A stretch of DNA of 20,913 nt from a virus. The translations under genes were made by a program, and so were the position numbers. Shown piece after piece: positions 11,001 to 17,051 of this stretch. The notes below the pieces were generated by a model. That model saw only the letters and a list, made by a program, of their open reading frames with translations, made no database searches and was not told the origin of the DNA. How positions within the stretch are numbered: position 1 is the first letter of the stretch; the number at the start of each line of letters is the position of its first letter. The stretch lies in IMG/VR virus record IMGVR_UViG_3300044712_000982, positions 85,373 through 106,285 of that record; one strand, written 5' to 3'.

Positions 11001-11252
11001 TCAGGCTGTCTGCAATCTGCGGTTCCGGCGCTTCGGTGGCCCTTCGGGGCTGATCTCGTCGAGGTCGACGCCGAGGGCGTTTGCTATGGCTAGCCGTGTT
11101 GCCGGGAGTCCTTTGGTGACTCCGCTTTCCATGCGGCTGATGACGGTCGGGTCGAGGTTTGCCCTGCGGCCGAGTTCGGCCTGGGTCCATCCGTTGCGGA
11201 GTCTGGCGCGTTCGATGGCCTGCCCGTTGGTGAGTCCGGGTGCGATGGTCAT
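11001..11252 (-). CDS. Cro-like XRE HTH regulator B
   Basis: IERARLRNGWTQAELGRRANLDPTVISRMESG...IANALGVDLDEI; TAAGAT -10 box 6 nt before the ATG. Confidence 0.9.
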   Translation of the reverse strand: MTIAPGLTNGQAIERARLRNGWTQAELGRRANLDPTVISRMESGVTKGLPATRLAIANALGVDLDEISPEGPPKRRNRRLQTA

Positions 11253-11281
11253 GCATAGATCTTAGCAGGATCATGCATGAT
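11249..11281. promoter_or_regulatory. Operator pair TCATGCATRR in switch B
   Basis: ATCATGCATGAT perfect palindrome at 11270-11281; TCATGCATAG at 11249-11258 overlapping the cro start. Confidence 0.6.
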
Positions 11282-11362
11282 ATGCCGGTATCGGGCTGTA
11301 CTTTTCTGCACGATCCGGCAGCCTCTAGCACTTCACCCGTTCCGGTTGGCACGATCACCCGC

Positions 11363-11755
11363 ATGGACCGGAAAAGACTGGCAAATGCCGTAATTGCCCG
11401 TCGTGTCCAGCTTGGGCACCGGAGTCGAGAAGCCTTCGCCGAAGCCGCCGGCATCAGCCCACGCACCATCAGCTACATCGAGACCGGAGAGGATCGCAGG
11501 TACAACGCCTCAACCGTCGCCCAGCTTGAGCACGCCCTGAAGTGGGCGCCCGGCTCAGTCGCTCGGATCCTGGCCGGCGGCGACCCGATGCCGCTGCCCG
11601 ACAGTGCCCGGCCGATCCCCCCGCTCGCCGCGGAGTTGGCGGCGATGCTCGACCCTGACTCGCCCCTCACGCCCGAGGCGCGCGACTACCTCGGGCGGCT
11701 CGTGGACCTCGCCATGACCCCGCACCGGCAGGCGATGCGACGGAGGGACAACTAG
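11363..11755 (+). CDS. XRE/CI-like repressor B (actinophage immunity repressor type)
   Basis: RLANAVIARRVQLG..SREAFAEAAGISPRTISYIETG...LEHALKWAPGSVARILAGGDP. Confidence 0.9.
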   Translation: MDRKRLANAVIARRVQLGHRSREAFAEAAGISPRTISYIETGEDRRYNASTVAQLEHALKWAPGSVARILAGGDPMPLPDSARPIPPLAAELAAMLDPDSPLTPEARDYLGRLVDLAMTPHRQAMRRRDN

Positions 11756-12063
11756 CTGCGGCTATCTTTTCGGCGACGCGCCACTAATCAGGTTGACGTC
11801 TTTGCGCACGCACCGCATACTCGCATTTGCACGAACACTTACCCGATGAGTCGTTGTGACCAGGTGGCAGCCCGAGCAGACGCCGCGTTTGCGGCCGTCG
11901 TGCGCTGGGCAAAATCTGGTCGGCTCCGCCAACGTGATTCCGGCGGCCTTCGAAGCCAAGCGCGATCACATGGGTAGGTGGCGCGACTAGCGCAGCACAA
12001 CGCGCGAGCGCCGCCCACCCGAACCGGGTACGGGCGGCATTTCCAGTTTCCGACCAACTTCAT

Positions 12064-12137
12064 ATGGGCGTAGCTCAATCAGGTAGAGCGCTGGTCTCCA
12101 AAACCAGTCGTTGCGGGTTCAATTCCTGCCGCCCATG
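12064..12137 (+). tRNA. trnW: tRNA-Trp(CCA)
   Basis: Cloverleaf; CTGGT-CTCCAAA-ACCAG. Confidence 0.95.
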
Positions 12138-12172
12138 CGCAACAGCCCCAGCATGCTGGCGGCGCACGAACG

Positions 12173-12189
12173 TTGAGAACTCCACAGCG
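12173..12189 (+). promoter_or_regulatory. rrn-type boxA/CL2 antitermination-like motif TTGAGAACTCCACAGCG
   Basis: One mismatch to TTGAGAACTCAACAGCG, recalled from actinobacterial 16S rRNA leaders; preceded by the CCAGCATGCTGG hairpin. Confidence 0.6.
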
Positions 12190-12198
12190 GATGGCATT

Positions 12199-12271
12199 CG
12201 GGAATGACCGGCACGGTGACCGGGCCTGATTTGGGATCAGGACGCAGCGCGTTCGACTCGCGTATTCCCGA
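12199..12271 (+). tRNA. trnP: tRNA-Pro(TGG), G8/C14
   Basis: CCTGA-TTTGGGA-TCAGG; C1-G72, A73. Confidence 0.85.
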
Positions 12272-12275
12272 CGAT

Positions 12276-12348
12276 GGGGTTGTAGCTCAGTTGGTAGAGC
12301 GTCGGCTCGGCAGACCGAAGGCCGAGGGTTCGAGACCCTCCTTCTCCA
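12276..12348 (+). tRNA. trnA: tRNA-Ala(GGC), atypical (C33, two U-U acceptor mismatches)
   Basis: G3-U70, A73; loop TCGGCAG. Confidence 0.75.
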
Positions 12349-12356
12349 CGCATCAT

Positions 12357-12432
12357 GCCTCTCAAGCTCAGCCAGGTAGCAGCGCGCGGTTGAAGCCCGC
12401 GAGGATTCCGGGTTCGACCCCCGGGGGAGGCA
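12357..12432 (+). tRNA. trnF: tRNA-Phe(GAA)
   Basis: CGCGG-TTGAAGC-CCGCG; A8. Confidence 0.85.
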
Positions 12433-12440
12433 CGTTTCAT

Positions 12441-12517
12441 GGGCCGTCGGAGCAGATGGAACGCTCACCTCGTTCTCAGCGAGGAGAACACCGGTTCGAG
12501 CCCGGTACGGCCTGCCA
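12441..12517 (+). tRNA. trnE: tRNA-Glu(CTC), CCA encoded
   Basis: CCTCG-TTCTCAG-CGAGG. Confidence 0.9.
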
Positions 12518-12518
12518 C

Positions 12519-12591
12519 GCGGTCGTGGTGAACTCGGCGGACACATCAGTCTTCCAAACTGAGAAAGCGGGTTCGATGCCCGCCGGCCGCT
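12519..12591 (+). tRNA. trnG: tRNA-Gly(TCC)
   Basis: TCAGT-CTTCCAA-ACTGA; U73. Confidence 0.9.
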
Positions 12592-12596
12592 CTCGT

Positions 12597-12673
12597 TCCG
12601 GGGTACGGCGCTGGCGTCCGTGACCGCACTTTGAATGCGGAACCCGTAGGTTCGATTCCTGCACCCGGAGCCA
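12597..12673 (+). tRNA. trnQ: tRNA-Gln(TTG), CCA encoded, atypical D arm
   Basis: CCGCA-CTTTGAA-TGCGG; U1-A72. Confidence 0.85.
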
Positions 12674-12674
12674 T

Positions 12675-12748
12675 GCCGTGGTGGCCCAACCGGGAGAGGC
12701 GCTCCGTTCAAAGCGGAGAAGTTGGGGGTTCGAATCCCTCGCACGGCA
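12675..12748 (+). tRNA. trnL: tRNA-Leu(CAA), short variable loop
   Basis: CTCCG-TTCAAAG-CGGAG; 5-nt variable loop; A73. Confidence 0.85.
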
Positions 12749-12758
12749 CTCGTTCGAT

Positions 12759-12833
12759 GCGGCTGTAGCACAACGGTCAGTGCGTCGCCTTGCCATGGCG
12801 AAAACCGGGGTTCGACTCCCCGTAGCCGCTCCA
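12759..12833 (+). tRNA. trnG: tRNA-Gly(GCC), CCA encoded
   Basis: TCGCC-TTGCCAT-GGCGA. Confidence 0.95.
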
Positions 12834-12865
12834 CGTCCACCCTCAATGGCCAGGAGGTGTTTCCG

Positions 12866-13309
12866 GTGGACTCGGTACTTGTTCTCAACGCCGACCTCGG
12901 GCCGCTGCACCGGGTCAGCCTGCGCCACGCGATCCGGATGCTCTGCCGACAGGTGGCGGAGGTCCACGAATCGGAGCCCGACATACGCATCGGCGTGTTT
13001 CCGATGCCGCGGGTGGTGCGGCTCGTCGCGTACGTGGTGACCCGCTGGCGGTACAGCGCCGGCCCGGCGTGGTCGCGGACAGGTGTGCTCGCCCGTGACG
13101 GGCGGCGTTGCGGCTACTGTGGCAGTCCGGCAACCACGGTCGATCACATCCTCCCGCGGTCGCGGGGTGGCCGGAACGCCTGGAAGAACACGGTCGCCGC
13201 GTGTGGGCCGTGTAATCAGCGCAAGGGCGACAGGACCCCCATCGAAGCGCGGATGCCGCTGCGGGCCACCCCAGCGGCGCCGACCTGGGCCACGCTCGCC
13301 CAGCGCTAA
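12866..13309 (+). CDS. HNH endonuclease (HNH_5/McrA-like) embedded in the tRNA array
   Basis: AGGAGGT RBS, GTG at 12866; VLVLNAD N-terminus; RDGRRCGYCG..TVDHILPRSRGG...N.VAAC..CNQRKG. Confidence 0.92.
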   Translation: MDSVLVLNADLGPLHRVSLRHAIRMLCRQVAEVHESEPDIRIGVFPMPRVVRLVAYVVTRWRYSAGPAWSRTGVLARDGRRCGYCGSPATTVDHILPRSRGGRNAWKNTVAACGPCNQRKGDRTPIEARMPLRATPAAPTWATLAQR

Positions 13310-13374
13310 CGCTCAGAACCTCACGAGGATGGCCGGTGACGGCATGGGGTGACAGCCGGGAGAGACCGGCCCAT

Positions 13375-13446
13375 TCCCGGGTCGTCTAGCTGGTAGGACG
13401 CCGCGCTCTGAACGCGGAAGGCTGGGTTCGAATCCTGGCCCGGGAG
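13375..13446 (+). tRNA. trnQ: tRNA-Gln(CTG)
   Basis: CCGCG-CTCTGAA-CGCGG. Confidence 0.95.
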
Positions 13447-13459
13447 CGTTACCTCACAT

Positions 13460-13535
13460 GCCGGTGTAGCTCACGTTGGTTCCGAGCACCGCTCTTGTAA
13501 AGCGGAGAACGCTAGTTCGATTCTAGTCACCGGCT
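13460..13535 (+). tRNA. trnT: tRNA-Thr(TGT)
   Basis: CCGCT-CTTGTAA-AGCGG. Confidence 0.92.
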
Positions 13536-13539
13536 CTTC

Positions 13540-13613
13540 GGGCTCTTAGCTCATTTTGGTAGAGCACCTGTCTTGCAAACAGGAGGTGGCCGGTTCGAAA
13601 CCGGCAGGGTCCA
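13540..13613 (+). tRNA. trnA: tRNA-Ala(TGC)
   Basis: CCTGT-CTTGCAA-ACAGG; G3-U70. Confidence 0.95.
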
Positions 13614-13619
13614 CGTCAT

Positions 13620-13694
13620 GCCCGGGTAGCCCAAATGGTAGGAGGCGACTGGCTTAGAACCAGTTCAGTGCACGTTCGAATCGTGTTCCGGGTA
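13620..13694 (+). tRNA. trnL: tRNA-Leu(TAG), short variable loop
   Basis: ACTGG-CTTAGAA-CCAGT; 5-nt variable loop. Confidence 0.88.
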
Positions 13695-13698
13695 CTTT

Positions 13699-13771
13699 GC
13701 TGGCGTAGCTCAGTGGTTAGAGCGCCGGATTGTCAATCCGGAGGCCGCGGGTTCGAGTCCCGCCGTCGGCG
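13699..13771 (+). tRNA. trnD: tRNA-Asp(GTC)
   Basis: CCGGA-TTGTCAA-TCCGG; G73. Confidence 0.95.
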
Positions 13772-13775
13772 CGTT

Positions 13776-13864
13776 GGAGAGTTGGCCGAGTTGGTTTATG
13801 GCGCCGCACTGCTAATGCGGTTCGGGTAACACCGTCGTGGGTTCGAATCCCGCACTCTCCGCCA
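13776..13864 (+). tRNA. trnS: tRNA-Ser(GCT), CCA encoded
   Basis: CCGCA-CTGCTAA-TGCGG; long variable arm. Confidence 0.95.
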
Positions 13865-13865
13865 T

Positions 13866-13939
13866 GCCGTCGTGGCCCGCGTGGTAAGGGCGTCTCGCCG
13901 ATAACGAGAAGGTAGGGAGTTCGACTCTCCCCGACGGTA
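13866..13939 (+). tRNA. trnI: tRNA-Ile(GAT), C33
   Basis: TCTCG-CCGATAA-CGAGA. Confidence 0.88.
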
Positions 13940-13943
13940 CTTT

Positions 13944-14016
13944 GCCCCCGTAGCTCAATGGATGGAGCAGCGGCCTACGAAGCCGTGGTATGCGAGTTCG
14001 AATCTCGCCGGGGGTG
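13944..14016 (+). tRNA. trnR: tRNA-Arg(ACG)
   Basis: GCGGC-CTACGAA-GCCGT. Confidence 0.95.
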
Positions 14017-14021
14017 CGTTT

Positions 14022-14099
14022 CGGGATGTAGCTCAGCTTGGTCAGAGCACGCGGCTGGGGGCCGCGGGGCCGCCGGTTCGAATCCGACCATCCCGACCA
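14022..14099 (+). tRNA. trnP: tRNA-Pro(GGG), CCA encoded
   Basis: CGCGG-CTGGGGG-CCGCG. Confidence 0.92.
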
Positions 14100-14100
14100 G

Positions 14101-14174
14101 CGGGTACTAGCTCAACTTGGTGGAGCGCGCGGTCCGGGGCCGCGAGGATGGGCGTTCGAATCGCCCGTACCCGA
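14101..14174 (+). tRNA. trnP: tRNA-Pro(CGG), C33
   Basis: CGCGG-TCCGGGG-CCGCG. Confidence 0.88.
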
Positions 14175-14178
14175 CTGT

Positions 14179-14262
14179 GGAGGGTGGCGCCATGGTGGCA
14201 AACCGGTCTTGAAAACCGTGCCGGGGTAACGCCCGAGGGTTCGATTCCTTCACCCTCCTCCA
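14179..14262 (+). tRNA. trnS: tRNA-Ser(TGA), CCA encoded, atypical D arm
   Basis: CGGT-CTTGAAA-ACCG; long variable arm. Confidence 0.85.
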
Positions 14263-14263
14263 C

Positions 14264-14334
14264 GCGCCGCTAGCTGAGTGGTTTAGCACCGGACTCTTAA
14301 TCCGGGGAGGAAGGTTCGATCCCTTCGCGGCGTA
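14264..14334 (+). tRNA. trnK: tRNA-Lys(CTT)
   Basis: CCGGA-CTCTTAA-TCCGG. Confidence 0.92.
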
Positions 14335-14339
14335 CGTTT

Positions 14340-14412
14340 CCCTCGGCAGCTCGACGGAACGAGCAACGGACTTCTAAGCCGCTGGTTGCCGGTTCGATTC
14401 CGGCCCGAGGGA
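14340..14412 (+). tRNA. trnR: tRNA-Arg(TCT), weak anticodon stem, C8/G14
   Basis: ACGGA-CTTCTAA-GCCGC. Confidence 0.8.
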
Positions 14413-14418
14413 CTCTCT

Positions 14419-14490
14419 CTCCCGCTAGCTCAACGGACAGAGCGCCACCCTCCTAAGGTGGATGTCCACGTTCGAATCGTGGGCGGGAGA
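14419..14490 (+). tRNA. trnR: tRNA-Arg(CCT)
   Basis: CCACC-CTCCTAA-GGTGG. Confidence 0.93.
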
Positions 14491-14495
14491 CTTAT

Positions 14496-14567
14496 GCGCC
14501 GTTAGCTCAGAGGTAGAGCTGCCGCCTTTTAAGCGGAGTGTCGCAGGTTCGAGCCCTGCACGGCGTA
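14496..14567 (+). tRNA. trnK: tRNA-Lys(TTT)
   Basis: CCGC-CTTTTAA-GCGG. Confidence 0.93.
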
Positions 14568-14568
14568 C

Positions 14569-14642
14569 TGCGGGTGTGGTGGAGTGGAACCACGCTGGGC
14601 TCATAACCCGGAGACGCCGTTCGAATCGGACACCCGCCACCA
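14569..14642 (+). tRNA. trnM: Initiator-type tRNA-fMet(CAT), CCA encoded, imperfect T stem
   Basis: CTGGG-CTCATAA-CCCGG (three G-C pairs); 1:72 U-C mismatch. Confidence 0.82.
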
Positions 14643-14714
14643 CGCGCGTTCGACTATGGGTTAGGTTGCGAAGCTTTCACCTTCGCGGAACGGGTTCGAG
14701 TCCCGTACGCGCGA
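14643..14714 (+). tRNA. trnE: tRNA-Glu(TTC)
   Basis: CGAAG-CTTTCAC-CTTCG; starts immediately after the CCA of fMet. Confidence 0.9.
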
Positions 14715-14718
14715 CTAT

Positions 14719-14793
14719 TCCGGTGTCGCCCAATTCGGTAGGGCAACGCACTGTTAATGCGTACAGGTGCAGGTTCGAGTCCTGCCACCGGAG
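14719..14793 (+). tRNA. trnN: tRNA-Asn(GTT)
   Basis: ACGCA-CTGTTAA-TGCGT. Confidence 0.95.
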
Positions 14794-14797
14794 CTTC

Positions 14798-14872
14798 GCG
14801 TCGGAGTCCATCTGGTTGGTGGAGACCGTCTTATAAACGGTGTGTGGCTGGGTTCAATTCCCGCGCGGCGCA
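14798..14872 (+). tRNA. trnI: tRNA-Ile(TAT), atypical
   Basis: ACCGT-CTTATAA-ACGGT; A8/U14, bulged T stem, A73. Confidence 0.75.
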
Positions 14873-14877
14873 CCTAT

Positions 14878-14950
14878 GCCCGTGTAGCTCAGTTGGTGGA
14901 GCGGCTGCCTTACAAGCAGCGGGATGCAGGTTCGAATCCTGTCGCGGGTA
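14878..14950 (+). tRNA. trnV: tRNA-Val(TAC)
   Basis: GCTGC-CTTACAA-GCAGC. Confidence 0.95.
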
Positions 14951-14952
14951 CT

Positions 14953-15026
14953 GTGACTGTAGCTCAATGGTAGAGCGCTGGATTGTGGCTCCAGCGATGC
15001 CGGTTCAATTCCGGTCGGTCACCCCA
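14953..15026 (+). tRNA. trnH: tRNA-His(GTG), CCA encoded, no genomic G-1
   Basis: CTGGA-TTGTGGC-TCCAG; C73; base -1 is T. Confidence 0.93.
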
Positions 15027-15027
15027 A

Positions 15028-15112
15028 GTCCGTCGTGAGCATTGGTCAGCTCGGCAGTCTGTAAAACTGTCGCCTTGCGGCTGATCCGGTTCGAATCCGG
15101 GGGCGGGCACCA
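15028..15112 (+). tRNA. trnY: tRNA-Tyr(GTA), CCA encoded
   Basis: GCAGT-CTGTAAA-ACTGT; long variable arm. Confidence 0.9.
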
Positions 15113-15113
15113 A

Positions 15114-15185
15114 GTCTTCGTAGCGCAGCGGAAGCGCGCGGCCCTCCGAAGGCCGAGGTCGCTGGTTCGAATCCAGTCGGGGACG
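15114..15185 (+). tRNA. trnR: tRNA-Arg(CCG)
   Basis: CGGCC-CTCCGAA-GGCCG. Confidence 0.93.
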
Positions 15186-15186
15186 C

Positions 15187-15417
15187 TCACGGCTCGGTGT
15201 CGTTGCGGGTGCAGCGGCCGGTCTGCAAAACCGGATTCTCTCGGGTTCGACTCCCGGCCGAGCCTCTATGCCGTCTGCTGTGGATTTTGCGCTGGCGGGT
15301 CGGCTGCCCAGTCGCCATCGCCCGTGCGACCAGCGCGGCCCGGTCGGCCTCCGGGTCTCCGGTCCAGTCGTCGTACCGGCTTGAGAGTGGGCTTGTATCG
15401 CGTTCGCTGGTGCTCAC
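15187..15417 (-). CDS. Hypothetical protein, 3' end antisense to tRNA-Cys (possibly truncated)
   Basis: GGAGGGG RBS; GTG overlaps the upstream TAG. Confidence 0.5.
   Translation of the reverse strand: MSTSERDTSPLSSRYDDWTGDPEADRAALVARAMATGQPTRQRKIHSRRHRGSAGSRTRENPVLQTGRCTRNDTEP
15191..15265 (+). tRNA. trnC: tRNA-Cys(GCA), extended D stem
   Basis: CCGGT-CTGCAAA-ACCGG; U73. Confidence 0.88.
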
Positions 15418-15815
15418 TAGCTATCCCCTCCTGCTGTTGCGTAGATCTTCGGCGAGTCGAGGCGCGGCTTTCCGTGCACCGTCTCACCCCCGTACCGCAG
15501 GTGCCCCTGCTCGACGAGCTGGCCGATGATCTGCCGGCGACGCTCCGGCGAGCACTCGGCGACGGACGGTATGTCGCGGGCTATCTCCCGCAACGTCACG
15601 CCGTCCGGGCGGGCTGCGGCGTACGCGACGACGGCTGCGGCGCGGTCGCCGATCGGCGCAGGCTTGGCGCCGGCTGCCTGGATCTCATCCCACGCGGCCA
15701 CCAGCGCCGCGTGCTGCTCCTCCATCCGCTCCACCTCGCGGGCGAGCTGCAACAGGTGGTCACGGTTGATCACGCGCGGCTCGACGGCGCGGCGGATCTG
15801 GTCGGCGAGGCTCAT
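15417..15815 (-). CDS. Protein with C-terminal winged-HTH-like domain
   Basis: GGAG RBS; GVTLREIARDI...RRQIIGQLVEQGHL. Confidence 0.7.
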   Translation of the reverse strand: MSLADQIRRAVEPRVINRDHLLQLAREVERMEEQHAALVAAWDEIQAAGAKPAPIGDRAAAVVAYAAARPDGVTLREIARDIPSVAECSPERRRQIIGQLVEQGHLRYGGETVHGKPRLDSPKIYATAGGDS

Positions 15816-15839
15816 CGGAGCTCCAATCGGGTTGGGTGG

Positions 15840-15986
15840 TCAGGCTGCGTTCTCGGCGCGGTGGACCCGTGCTGCCGCGCGGGCCTCAGAGCGGCTTTCG
15901 GCATGGCTCTTCCAGCCGCACGAACATCTGGCGGTGCTGTTCTCGCTGCGCACGTGCCGGCCGCATGAGCCGTTCGACTTGGTCAC
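15840..15986 (-). CDS. Possible small Zn-finger protein (CSCGW...H); start uncertain
   Basis: ARCSCGWKS...AAARVHR motif; a competing + strand frame is also open. Confidence 0.4.
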   Translation of the reverse strand: MTKSNGSCGRHVRSENSTARCSCGWKSHAESRSEARAAARVHRAENAA

Positions 15987-16116
15987 GTACCGCTCGCTCT
16001 GGTGCGCCCGCGTCACCGGCCGCGGCGATGCTGCGGACGTCACGCTGTTCGGCGGACACGCCGTCGGCCAGGCCATCGCCAGCCTGTTCCTCGGCCGGGG
16101 ACTCGCCCGCAACGCC

Positions 16117-16574: not shown

Positions 16575-17051
16575 ATGTCGACCCTGATCGTTACGCTCGG
16601 CCCGCCCGGGTGCGGCAAAACCTACGACGTCGACGCGTGGATGCGCGTCGAGCCGGGCAGGGTGCGGATCTCCCGCGACGGACTACGGGTGGCTGTCGGA
16701 TTCGGCGGCAACCACGACGACAACCCGCGCTGGATGGAGGACGCGATTACGATGGCGCAGCGCGCCGCCGTTCGGGAGTGGCTACTCGACGGACTTGACG
16801 TGGCCATCGACGACACGTGCCAGTCGCAGCCGACGATGGACAACTGGATGCTGATCGCGAAGCGGTGCCGGGCGCGGCTGGTCGTGTGGGACTACCGGGC
16901 GGTGCCGCTGACGCTGTGCATTACGCGGGACCGCGAGCGCGGCGCCCGTGGTGGGAGGCTTGTCGGTGAGGATGCGGTTCGGTTGGTTGCCGAACGTTGC
17001 GCCGCCGTGACCATCCCGGCTGGCGCGGACTCGCTGCGGCTGCTGGCCTAG
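16575..17051 (+). CDS. AAA_33 / polynucleotide kinase (T4 PseT kinase-domain-like)
   Basis: GGAGGT RBS; GPPGCGKT, ISRDGLR, VAIDDT, CITRDRER lid motifs. Confidence 0.85.
   Translation: MSTLIVTLGPPGCGKTYDVDAWMRVEPGRVRISRDGLRVAVGFGGNHDDNPRWMEDAITMAQRAAVREWLLDGLDVAIDDTCQSQPTMDNWMLIAKRCRARLVVWDYRAVPLTLCITRDRERGARGGRLVGEDAVRLVAERCAAVTIPAGADSLRLLA

Follow-up and report, generated by a model that had tools for sequence, protein, structure and literature searches.

What would a phage do with 33 tRNA genes that between them represent every amino acid? This question is raised by a stretch of 20,913 nucleotides from the IMG/VR virus record IMGVR_UViG_3300044712_000982 (positions 85,373 to 106,285; hereafter the window), which carries a dense tRNA array interrupted by a single HNH endonuclease gene. 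An initial annotation, made from the letters alone, had taken the array for a replacement translation kit transcribed as one precursor. Here, gene content, synteny, a covarying leader-trailer helix, codon statistics and HNH conservation were observed that together fit best, with a probability of about 0.65, a phage-borne supplementary tRNA operon belonging to an actinobacterial family of HNH-containing arrays and possibly insensitive to host tRNA nucleases.

Gene content of the array and its carrier phage

The array comprises the following features:
12064..12137, + strand: tRNA-Trp(CCA), the first gene, outside the leader-trailer helix (ARAGORN; Rfam, 66 bits)
12199..12833, + strand: eight tRNAs, Pro-UGG, Ala-GGC, Phe-GAA, Glu-CUC, Gly-UCC, Gln-UUG, Leu-CAA and Gly-GCC (ARAGORN, Rfam, folds)
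12866..13309, + strand: HNH endonuclease gene, 147 aa, with an AGGAGG ribosome-binding site (Pfam HNH_5, E 1.6e-13, and HNH; phrog_16726)
13375..15265, + strand: 24 tRNAs from Gln-CUG to Cys-GCA, including the initiator (14569-14642) and tRNA-Ile(UAU) (ARAGORN, Rfam)

ARAGORN called 32 + strand tRNA genes in the interval 12064-15186, and a 33rd at 15191-15264 was matched by Rfam (tRNA-Sec model, 48.5 bits; RF00005, 38 bits). The anticodon loop CU-GCA-AA and discriminator U73 identify this last gene as tRNA-Cys, and Cys(gca) was likewise called by ARAGORN at the last position of the relatives' arrays. The arrangement described in the initial annotation (nine tRNAs, an HNH gene and 24 further tRNAs, all on the + strand) was recovered in full, together with 33 distinct anticodons, spacers of 0-13 nt (the exceptions being one of 61 nt from Trp to Pro and one of 541 nt containing the HNH gene) and nine genes with an encoded CCA, seven of them unambiguous and two register-dependent (Gln(UUG) in ARAGORN's register; the initiator read as 14569-14642). 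Coverage of all 20 amino acids was confirmed by anticodon (20/20 isotypes), but the sole CAT tRNA is of the initiator type (1:72 mismatch, A73, CCA, GGG/CCC anticodon stem), and elongator tRNA-Met is therefore not encoded.

With 33 genes in 3,202 bp (~10 per kb), the clustering is far beyond chance. The locus has the at least 20 tRNA genes at 2 or more per kb by which arrays have been defined (PMC4758250), as well as the properties ascribed to L-arrays, i.e., co-oriented genes close enough for co-transcription, no periodic pattern, horizontal spread and supernumerary tRNA genes (PMC8421152).

The virus record is 106,285 bp long, with 65.7% G+C and terminal repeats of 116 bp, and its final 20.9 kb make up the window. 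CheckV rated the record complete, and among its products are a large terminase, DnaB, a sliding clamp, a tape measure protein and minor tail proteins. As this is the complete genome of a tailed soil phage, the array belongs with phage tRNA clusters, as distinct from the arrays of plasmids or islands. The large terminase shares no more than 55% identity with its counterpart in any cultured phage, and DNA comparison with cultured phages and plasmids produced matches at the level of single tRNAs only. No supported tRNA gene was found in the rest of the phage genome using ARAGORN and Rfam; one extra ARAGORN call outside the window, tRNA-Ala(GGC) at genome positions 82803-82876, had no match to RF00005 and is probably a false positive.

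A syntenic family and its HNH gene

Loci of the family were collected using the HNH protein as a probe, and arrays without an HNH gene were thus not sampled. The search identified 25 IMG/VR contigs, many of ~90-150 kb, with an HNH gene 60-78% identical to that of the window, and at least 357 stretches with an HNH homologue in species-representative genomes. Among the best 80 genome loci, 79 were from Micromonosporaceae, including Dactylosporangium, Micromonospora, Actinoplanes and Catellatospora, with HNH identities of up to 87%. Almost all homologous HNH genes sit between tRNAs ordered as in the window, with Trp, Pro, Ala, Phe, Glu, Gly, Gln, Leu, (Thr-GGU) and Gly on the 5' side and Gln, (Leu-GAG), Thr ... 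Tyr, Arg and Cys on the 3' side. The longest common order accounted for 94-98% of shared anticodons, compared to 32-60% after permutation. Viral arrays were full, with at least 20 tRNAs in 23/25, and chromosomal arrays were mostly remnants with a median of 6 tRNAs.

Annotated chromosomal loci are flanked by ordinary bacterial genes (e.g., glycosyl hydrolases, a response regulator), phages with the same array have terminases that are either undetectable as homologues or just 38-39% identical, and none of the window's flanking proteins recurs beside related arrays. Taken together, these unrelated terminases, unshared flanks and chromosomal loci indicate a cassette exchanged among unrelated phages and chromosomes. 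One Micromonospora genome contained 50 housekeeping tRNAs and 35 array tRNAs. The array tRNAs are about as similar to their syntenic counterparts (~70% identity) as to housekeeping tRNAs of the same anticodon (~69%), which argues that the family is old and that this array did not arise by recent capture from a host.

The HNH domain belongs to the IscB/Cas9 type. All 106 homologues examined were intact open reading frames (ORFs) of 145-152 codons that kept the nuclease motif DH...N...N and two CxxC pairs, with a median dN/dS of 0.20 relative to the window copy, and the gene was still intact where chromosomal arrays were reduced to 3-6 tRNAs. Its position is also fixed, with Gly-GCC as the upstream neighbor in 56/105 loci and Gln-CUG as the downstream neighbor in 50/105. 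The sporadic presence and frequent decay expected of a homing gene were not seen among these HNH-sampled loci, and such intactness and stability are unlike the gain and decay of a purely selfish homing gene. We read HNH as a putative homing-type DNA endonuclease that is now a fixed and selected part of the cassette.

Two further observations concern these loci. A reduced array consisting of Trp, Leu-CAA, an intact HNH gene, Ala-UGC, Leu-CAG, Ser and Arg was present in 21 of the 80 genome loci, among them L044 and L047 on Dactylosporangium chromosomes; several complete Dactylosporangium genomes have it at similar chromosomal coordinates, which suggests a remnant passed on vertically. In Micromonospora sp. 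CA-246542 (G007), additional HNH copies lie outside the array at 6609518-6609918 and 5733273-5733467 (76% and 73% DNA identity).

A leader-trailer helix and an upstream leader

The single precursor proposed in the initial annotation was supported by two strands that flank tRNAs 2-33:
12166..12198, + strand: leader strand of a long-range helix, carrying the rrn-leader-like motif TTGAGAACTCCACAG... (family conservation; pairing energy)
15267..15300, + strand: trailer strand of the helix, beginning 2-3 nt after tRNA-Cys (pairing energy; relatives)

A 25-nt motif 3' of tRNA-Trp, TTGAGAACTCCACAGyGGATGGCAT, is kept across the family. Its core TTGAGAACTCAACAG has exactly three mismatch-free copies in a complete Micromonospora genome, each ~140 nt upstream of one of three 16S genes, where the motif forms the 5' strand of a leader-trailer helix whose partner lies ~170 nt past the 16S 3' end (-50 kcal/mol). 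The array leader and the host-family 16S leader are identical at 14/15 positions. In the window, pairing of 12166-12198 with 15267-15300 reached -38 kcal/mol, making the trailer the best partner in the entire 20.9 kb (median -17), and the resulting helix encloses precisely tRNAs 2-33. For relatives in which the array end was covered, the best partner mostly lay no more than ~20 nt from the last tRNA, with energies between -31 and -44 kcal/mol, where the medians were -12 to -18.

A 17-bp helix core was retained in 21 distinct leader-trailer pairs, with compensatory changes: position 4 is C:G in eight, U:A in nine and U:G in four, and positions 8 and 9 change jointly in two relatives (L015 and L033). 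Non-Watson-Crick cells in the central 11 bp comprised eight G.U and one A.C when read on the + strand. This asymmetry fits an RNA helix on the + strand, and it was the ground for discarding an alternative in which the two strands are terminal inverted repeats of the DNA. Because ends joined by a helix must lie in one transcript, its conservation supports transcription of the array as a single precursor; no internal promoter or real terminator was found within the array. The equivalent helix of bacterial rRNA operons also forms between the 5' leader and a strand just past the last structural RNA (PMC10250234), and by this analogy the array helix would probably be cleaved by RNase III, with the difference that the former encloses 16S rRNA whereas the latter encloses tRNAs and a protein-coding gene. 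The arrays do not conserve the U-rich boxA core that rrn leaders have just upstream of the motif, and for this reason Nus-type antitermination is not claimed.

Other roles for the motif were discarded. It is not a promoter, as it ends 1 nt before tRNA-Pro in the window, and a supposed second copy after HNH aligned at only 20/61 positions and needed a gap. No second match within 6 substitutions was found in the genome, and the spacer after HNH is ~35-40 nt in most relatives, too short for another copy. A literature search using the motif letters returned unrelated primer sequences only.

Upstream of tRNA-Trp, three features precede the array:
11793..11821, + strand: promoter-like site, TTGACG, 17 nt, CATACT, by consensus match only (the sole sigma-70-like match in 11200-16000)
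11856..11990, + strand: small leader ORF of 44 codons ending in GRWRD-stop (small ORF and hairpin in 51/57 relatives)
12010..12045, + strand: terminator-like hairpin GCCGCCC...GGGCGGC with a T-rich tail, 19 nt 5' of tRNA-Trp (-23.1 kcal/mol)

Leader ORFs of the relatives span 38-45 codons in their shortest forms, and their stop codons lie 15-32 nt from the hairpin in nearly all cases. The hairpin stem GCCGCC/GGCGGC is invariant in 42/42 aligned relatives, and thus shows no covariation, and its T-rich tail is followed by ~20-40 nt to the first tRNA. As this leaves no space for a promoter between hairpin and tRNA, transcription of the array must read through the hairpin. The leader peptide ends in G-R-W-R-x-stop in 28/48 distinct versions, in which Gly is encoded by all four of its codons and Arg by AGG, CGG, CGC and CGA; this synonymous variation points to selection on the peptide. 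The last codons of the ORF were also the best partner of the terminator 5' arm in 31/48 loci (-19 versus -10 kcal/mol for other segments), and in the window this alternative pairing has -24.6 kcal/mol, the terminator itself -23.1. Across the family, 71.8% of cells in the alternative pairing were paired versus 35-57% in slid controls, though its core never varies.

This layout, a predicted leader peptide gene with an intrinsic terminator shortly after it and the array beyond, is that of a ribosome-mediated transcription attenuator, and a ribosome-dependent switch at this candidate attenuator is plausible, if somewhat short of probable. Published work on the Anabaena PCC 7120 trn operon showed induction of that array by impaired translation (PMC8421152), and the candidate attenuator would act likewise. 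Anabaena-type L-arrays resemble the window array in being long, non-periodic, co-oriented and horizontally spread, with a homing endonuclease gene adjoining the array and RtcB linked to it, but belong to another phylum (PMC8421152). A broader proposition, that actinobacterial HNH arrays, whether on phages, plasmids or chromosomes, are pseudo-rRNA operons transcribed as one precursor with an rRNA-like stalk and that in Micromonosporaceae a leader-peptide attenuator opens when translation falters, is speculative and rather unlikely as a whole; if true, such an array would serve as an inducible reserve of tRNAs, able to sense the same process that it restores.

Judged by eye in an alignment, the stop codon of the leader ORF (around 11980-12009 in the window, and at the equivalent place in relatives) usually fell within or beside a small hairpin, the arms of which vary between relatives (GCGGC/GCCGC, GAGGC/GCCTC, GCGCG/CGCGC) with complementarity kept.

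Decoding range and rival functions

Codon usage was compared between 28,780 phage codons and 61,602 codons from chromosomal genes flanking Micromonosporaceae arrays. The GC3 value was 0.80 for the phage and 0.94 for the host-family genes, and A-ending codons were about five times as frequent in the phage (108 versus 23 per 1000). The array provides a U34 tRNA for every A-ending codon bar UUA, with CGA read through ACG, and includes a tRNA-Ile(UAU) that is missing from the Micromonospora genome. The earlier claim that wobble would let the set read nearly the whole code is true of four-way U34 wobble, which alone would reach 60/61 sense codons, but not of standard wobble, by which 52/61 are read (86% of phage codons) and UUA, UCU, UCC, CUU, CUC, ACU, ACC, GUU and GUC are not (14%). 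Thr-GGU, Leu-GAG, Val-GAC, Ser-GGA and several C34 tRNAs, which are the readers of the host's commonest codons, have been lost from the array by comparison with fuller relatives. No CCA-adding enzyme was found in the phage, although 24/33 tRNAs need one. With no elongator tRNA-Met, nine unread codons and no such enzyme, the set supplements the host pool and does not replace it, so that the term replacement translation kit was an overstatement.

A mechanism consistent with these observations can be outlined. Transcription would begin upstream of the small leader ORF, and the polymerase would have to get past the conserved terminator hairpin before tRNA-Trp to produce one precursor continuing through the 32 other tRNAs and the HNH mRNA. 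The ends of this precursor could then pair in a helix of at least 17 bp resembling the pre-16S rRNA stalk. Host enzymes would process the precursor into tRNAs, among them RNase P, the CCA-adding enzyme, enzymes that trim 3' ends and, probably, RNase III. The tRNAs would supplement the host pool, mainly for A-ending codons, which the phage (66% G+C) uses about five times as often as its hosts (~72% G+C). Many anticodon loops of the array are unlike those of housekeeping tRNAs and could be poor targets for anticodon nucleases, and the HNH protein would probably favor inheritance of the array in mixed infections.

The loops also raise the possibility that counter-defense is the main function, with altered-loop tRNAs escaping VapC, MazF or PrrC-type nucleases and keeping translation going, which would not exclude a supplementary operon. 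Compared with Micromonospora housekeeping tRNAs, 17/32 phage loops differ at positions 32, 33, 37 or 38, and across the family only 43% of array tRNAs share the housekeeping loop, with none doing so for Gln-CUG, Leu-GAG, Val-GAC and Leu-UAG. Even so, ~1,500 array tRNAs kept a purine at position 37 (98-99%) and a pyrimidine at position 32 (~95-97%). Published work proposes or demonstrates an anti-nuclease role for certain phage tRNA clusters, including those of mycobacteriophages and T5 (PMC10264068, PMC11555353), and mycobacterial arrays have been termed putative anti-defense systems (PMC12803027); RtcB lies in or next to two related arrays and a polynucleotide kinase (PNK)-like kinase lies near that of the window. 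However, loop positions diverge by ~22%, no faster than whole tRNAs (~30%), and the changes may be plain drift, and the phage has neither RNA ligase nor RtcB. Moreover, cluster C1 mycobacteriophages show no codon-usage gap to their host, whereas the window phage has a strong one. Altered loops could lower sensitivity to host anticodon nucleases, and we take counter-defense as the main function seriously without expecting it to be correct.

It is improbable that the array is a selfish cassette whose inheritance is driven by HNH with little benefit to the phage. The same cassette recurs in phages whose terminases are unrelated and at chromosomal sites surrounded by ordinary genes, its HNH gene outlasts the decay of chromosomal arrays, and a precedent exists in T4 SegB, an endonuclease gene within a phage tRNA cluster that favors inheritance of its region, as cited in PMC8421152 (SegB is GIY-YIG and not HNH, and the T4 cluster has only 8 tRNAs). 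Yet nearly all viral arrays are full and almost free of duplicate anticodons, tRNA structural constraints are maintained, the conserved regulatory leader and processing helix imply selected expression, and the co-conversion gradient in tRNA identity that recent homing would predict was not detected around HNH. An autonomous replacement kit, used after the phage has destroyed host tRNA or DNA, is more improbable still. Its 20 isotypes without redundancy and the 55-57/61 codons read by standard wobble in some relatives are what such a kit would have, but the window array lacks elongator tRNA-Met, leaves the C-ending codons CUC, GUC, ACC and UCC unread and relies on a CCA-adding enzyme that the phage does not encode, and no host-shutoff nuclease was identified.

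The preferred reading of a supplementary operon must itself accommodate several points that weigh against it. Transcription, processing, charging, regulation and HNH activity are all deduced from sequence, and the host is likely a member of the Micromonosporaceae judging solely from the distribution of the cassette. The helix core is largely invariant with few covarying positions, and the missing co-conversion gradient applies here too. Mean log2 enrichment in the phage was 0.93 for codons with a cognate phage tRNA and 1.34 for those without, i.e., about equal, and codon compensation is therefore supported for the A-ending class only. Some tRNAs also look atypical. Phe(gaa) and Pro(cgg) fold as cloverleaves and occupy syntenic positions in relatives, but Rfam returned no match for either even at E<=1. 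The nearly universal U33 is replaced by C33 in Ala-GGC (12276-12349), Ile-GAU (13866-13940) and Pro-CGG (14101-14175), a change found in 6-10% of array tRNAs and 0/50 housekeeping tRNAs, and the acceptor stem of Ala-GGC contains two U.U mismatches. Charging by HisRS normally requires G-1, which Micromonospora housekeeping tRNA-His encodes, while tRNA-His of the array (14953-15026) has T at -1, as do 13/29 His genes of the array family. Some array tRNAs may consequently be weak or dead.

HNH-bearing tRNA arrays are known from mycobacteria, cyanobacteria and large phages, and the present locus connects a complete phage with a syntenic family that is very large in antibiotic-producing Micromonosporaceae. 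The covarying helix predicts one RNase III-processed precursor, the conserved leader ORF and terminator predict induction under impaired translation, and the HNH gene, intact throughout and fixed in its junction, predicts that cleavage occurs at a defined site. Should these predictions hold, they would explain how a supernumerary tRNA set is carried silently and then switched on, and would provide a sequence signature for finding such arrays elsewhere.

Related arrays and neighboring genes

Several features of the locus have precedents in published work on mycobacteria, cyanobacteria and phages: arrays that exceed 20 tRNAs, an HNH gene within the array, an XRE regulator, carriage by phages, plasmids and chromosomes, and redundancy with housekeeping tRNAs (PMC5966550, PMC8421152, PMC12803027, PMC4758250). 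The closest parallels are the Mycobacterium G2 and M. avium linear-plasmid arrays (PMC5966550; PMC12803027), which share with the window array more than 20 tRNAs on one strand for 19-20 amino acids, a single embedded HNH gene, an upstream XRE gene (accompanying ~87% of G2 arrays; PMC5966550), phage, plasmid and chromosome carriers, and tRNAs that diverge from housekeeping genes in the anticodon domain; they differ in having mycobacterial hosts instead of Micromonosporaceae. The link to HNH-bearing arrays suggested initially is borne out by the Mycolicibacterium plasmid pTY66_01, whose array contains an HNH gene 45% identical over its full length to that of the window and the same leader motif in a version of its own (GGTGGC/GCCACC), with candidate trailers right after and 1 kb after the last tRNA. 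Synteny with this array extends to the Trp-Pro pair, but its isotype order otherwise differs, and no small-ORF and terminator leader was found in it. The window array should therefore be filed as a separate group, on the basis of order compared with one mycobacterial plasmid array and not with the published groups G1-G5.

Among phages, mycobacteriophage cluster C1, T5 and Microbacterium phage A3Wally also carry tens of tRNAs per block. In A3Wally, homologous HNH genes are interspersed with the tRNAs and an RNA ligase closes the block; the phage differs in its duplicate anticodons and ~100-nt spacers. No paper in the open-access literature was found to tie tRNA arrays to Micromonosporaceae, a leader-trailer helix or a leader-peptide attenuator, and as far as the mycobacterial array papers (PMC5966550; PMC12803027) are searchable neither helix nor leader is described in them. 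The expression signals of this family are thus probably new.

Several minor observations were made on individual tRNAs. Phe-GAA of the window has G37. A tRNA with anticodon CUA, a putative amber suppressor, is found in related viral arrays (L021, 4880-4952; L023, 2445-2517; L027, 2291-2365; and L159), and ARAGORN reported four-base anticodons in L029, L034 and L042. A third kind of CAT tRNA, often with the anticodon loop UU-CAU-AC, lies 3' of tRNA-Cys and outside the trailer strand in L011 (7375-7445), L033 (9399-9473), L037 (8036-8108) and others.

Two neighboring genes flank the array:
11363..11755, + strand: XRE-type helix-turn-helix regulator gene upstream of the array (Pfam HTH_3 and HTH_31, E 3e-7)
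16575..17051, + strand: polynucleotide-kinase-like P-loop kinase, 1.3 kb downstream of the array, link uncertain (Pfam AAA_33, E 1.7e-10; phrog_505, E 1.8e-17)

HTH_31 genes occupy the equivalent place in L012 and L018, and a 38%-identical homologue of the regulator lies upstream of the L054 array. Neither the PNK-like kinase nor the neighboring 227-aa and 132-aa proteins had homologues beside related arrays; the 227-aa protein received no identification from Pfam, PHROGs, NCBIfam or ESM Atlas, and a locus search with the neighboring helicase-like protein gave zero results. A tRNA-repair module of kinase and ligase is not supported, as neither an RNA ligase nor RtcB was found in the phage genome. 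Among the relatives, RtcB genes with a mutual identity of 80% (Pfam E 2.5e-122) are located just after one array (L012, 8112-9311) and inside another (L054, 7422-8618).

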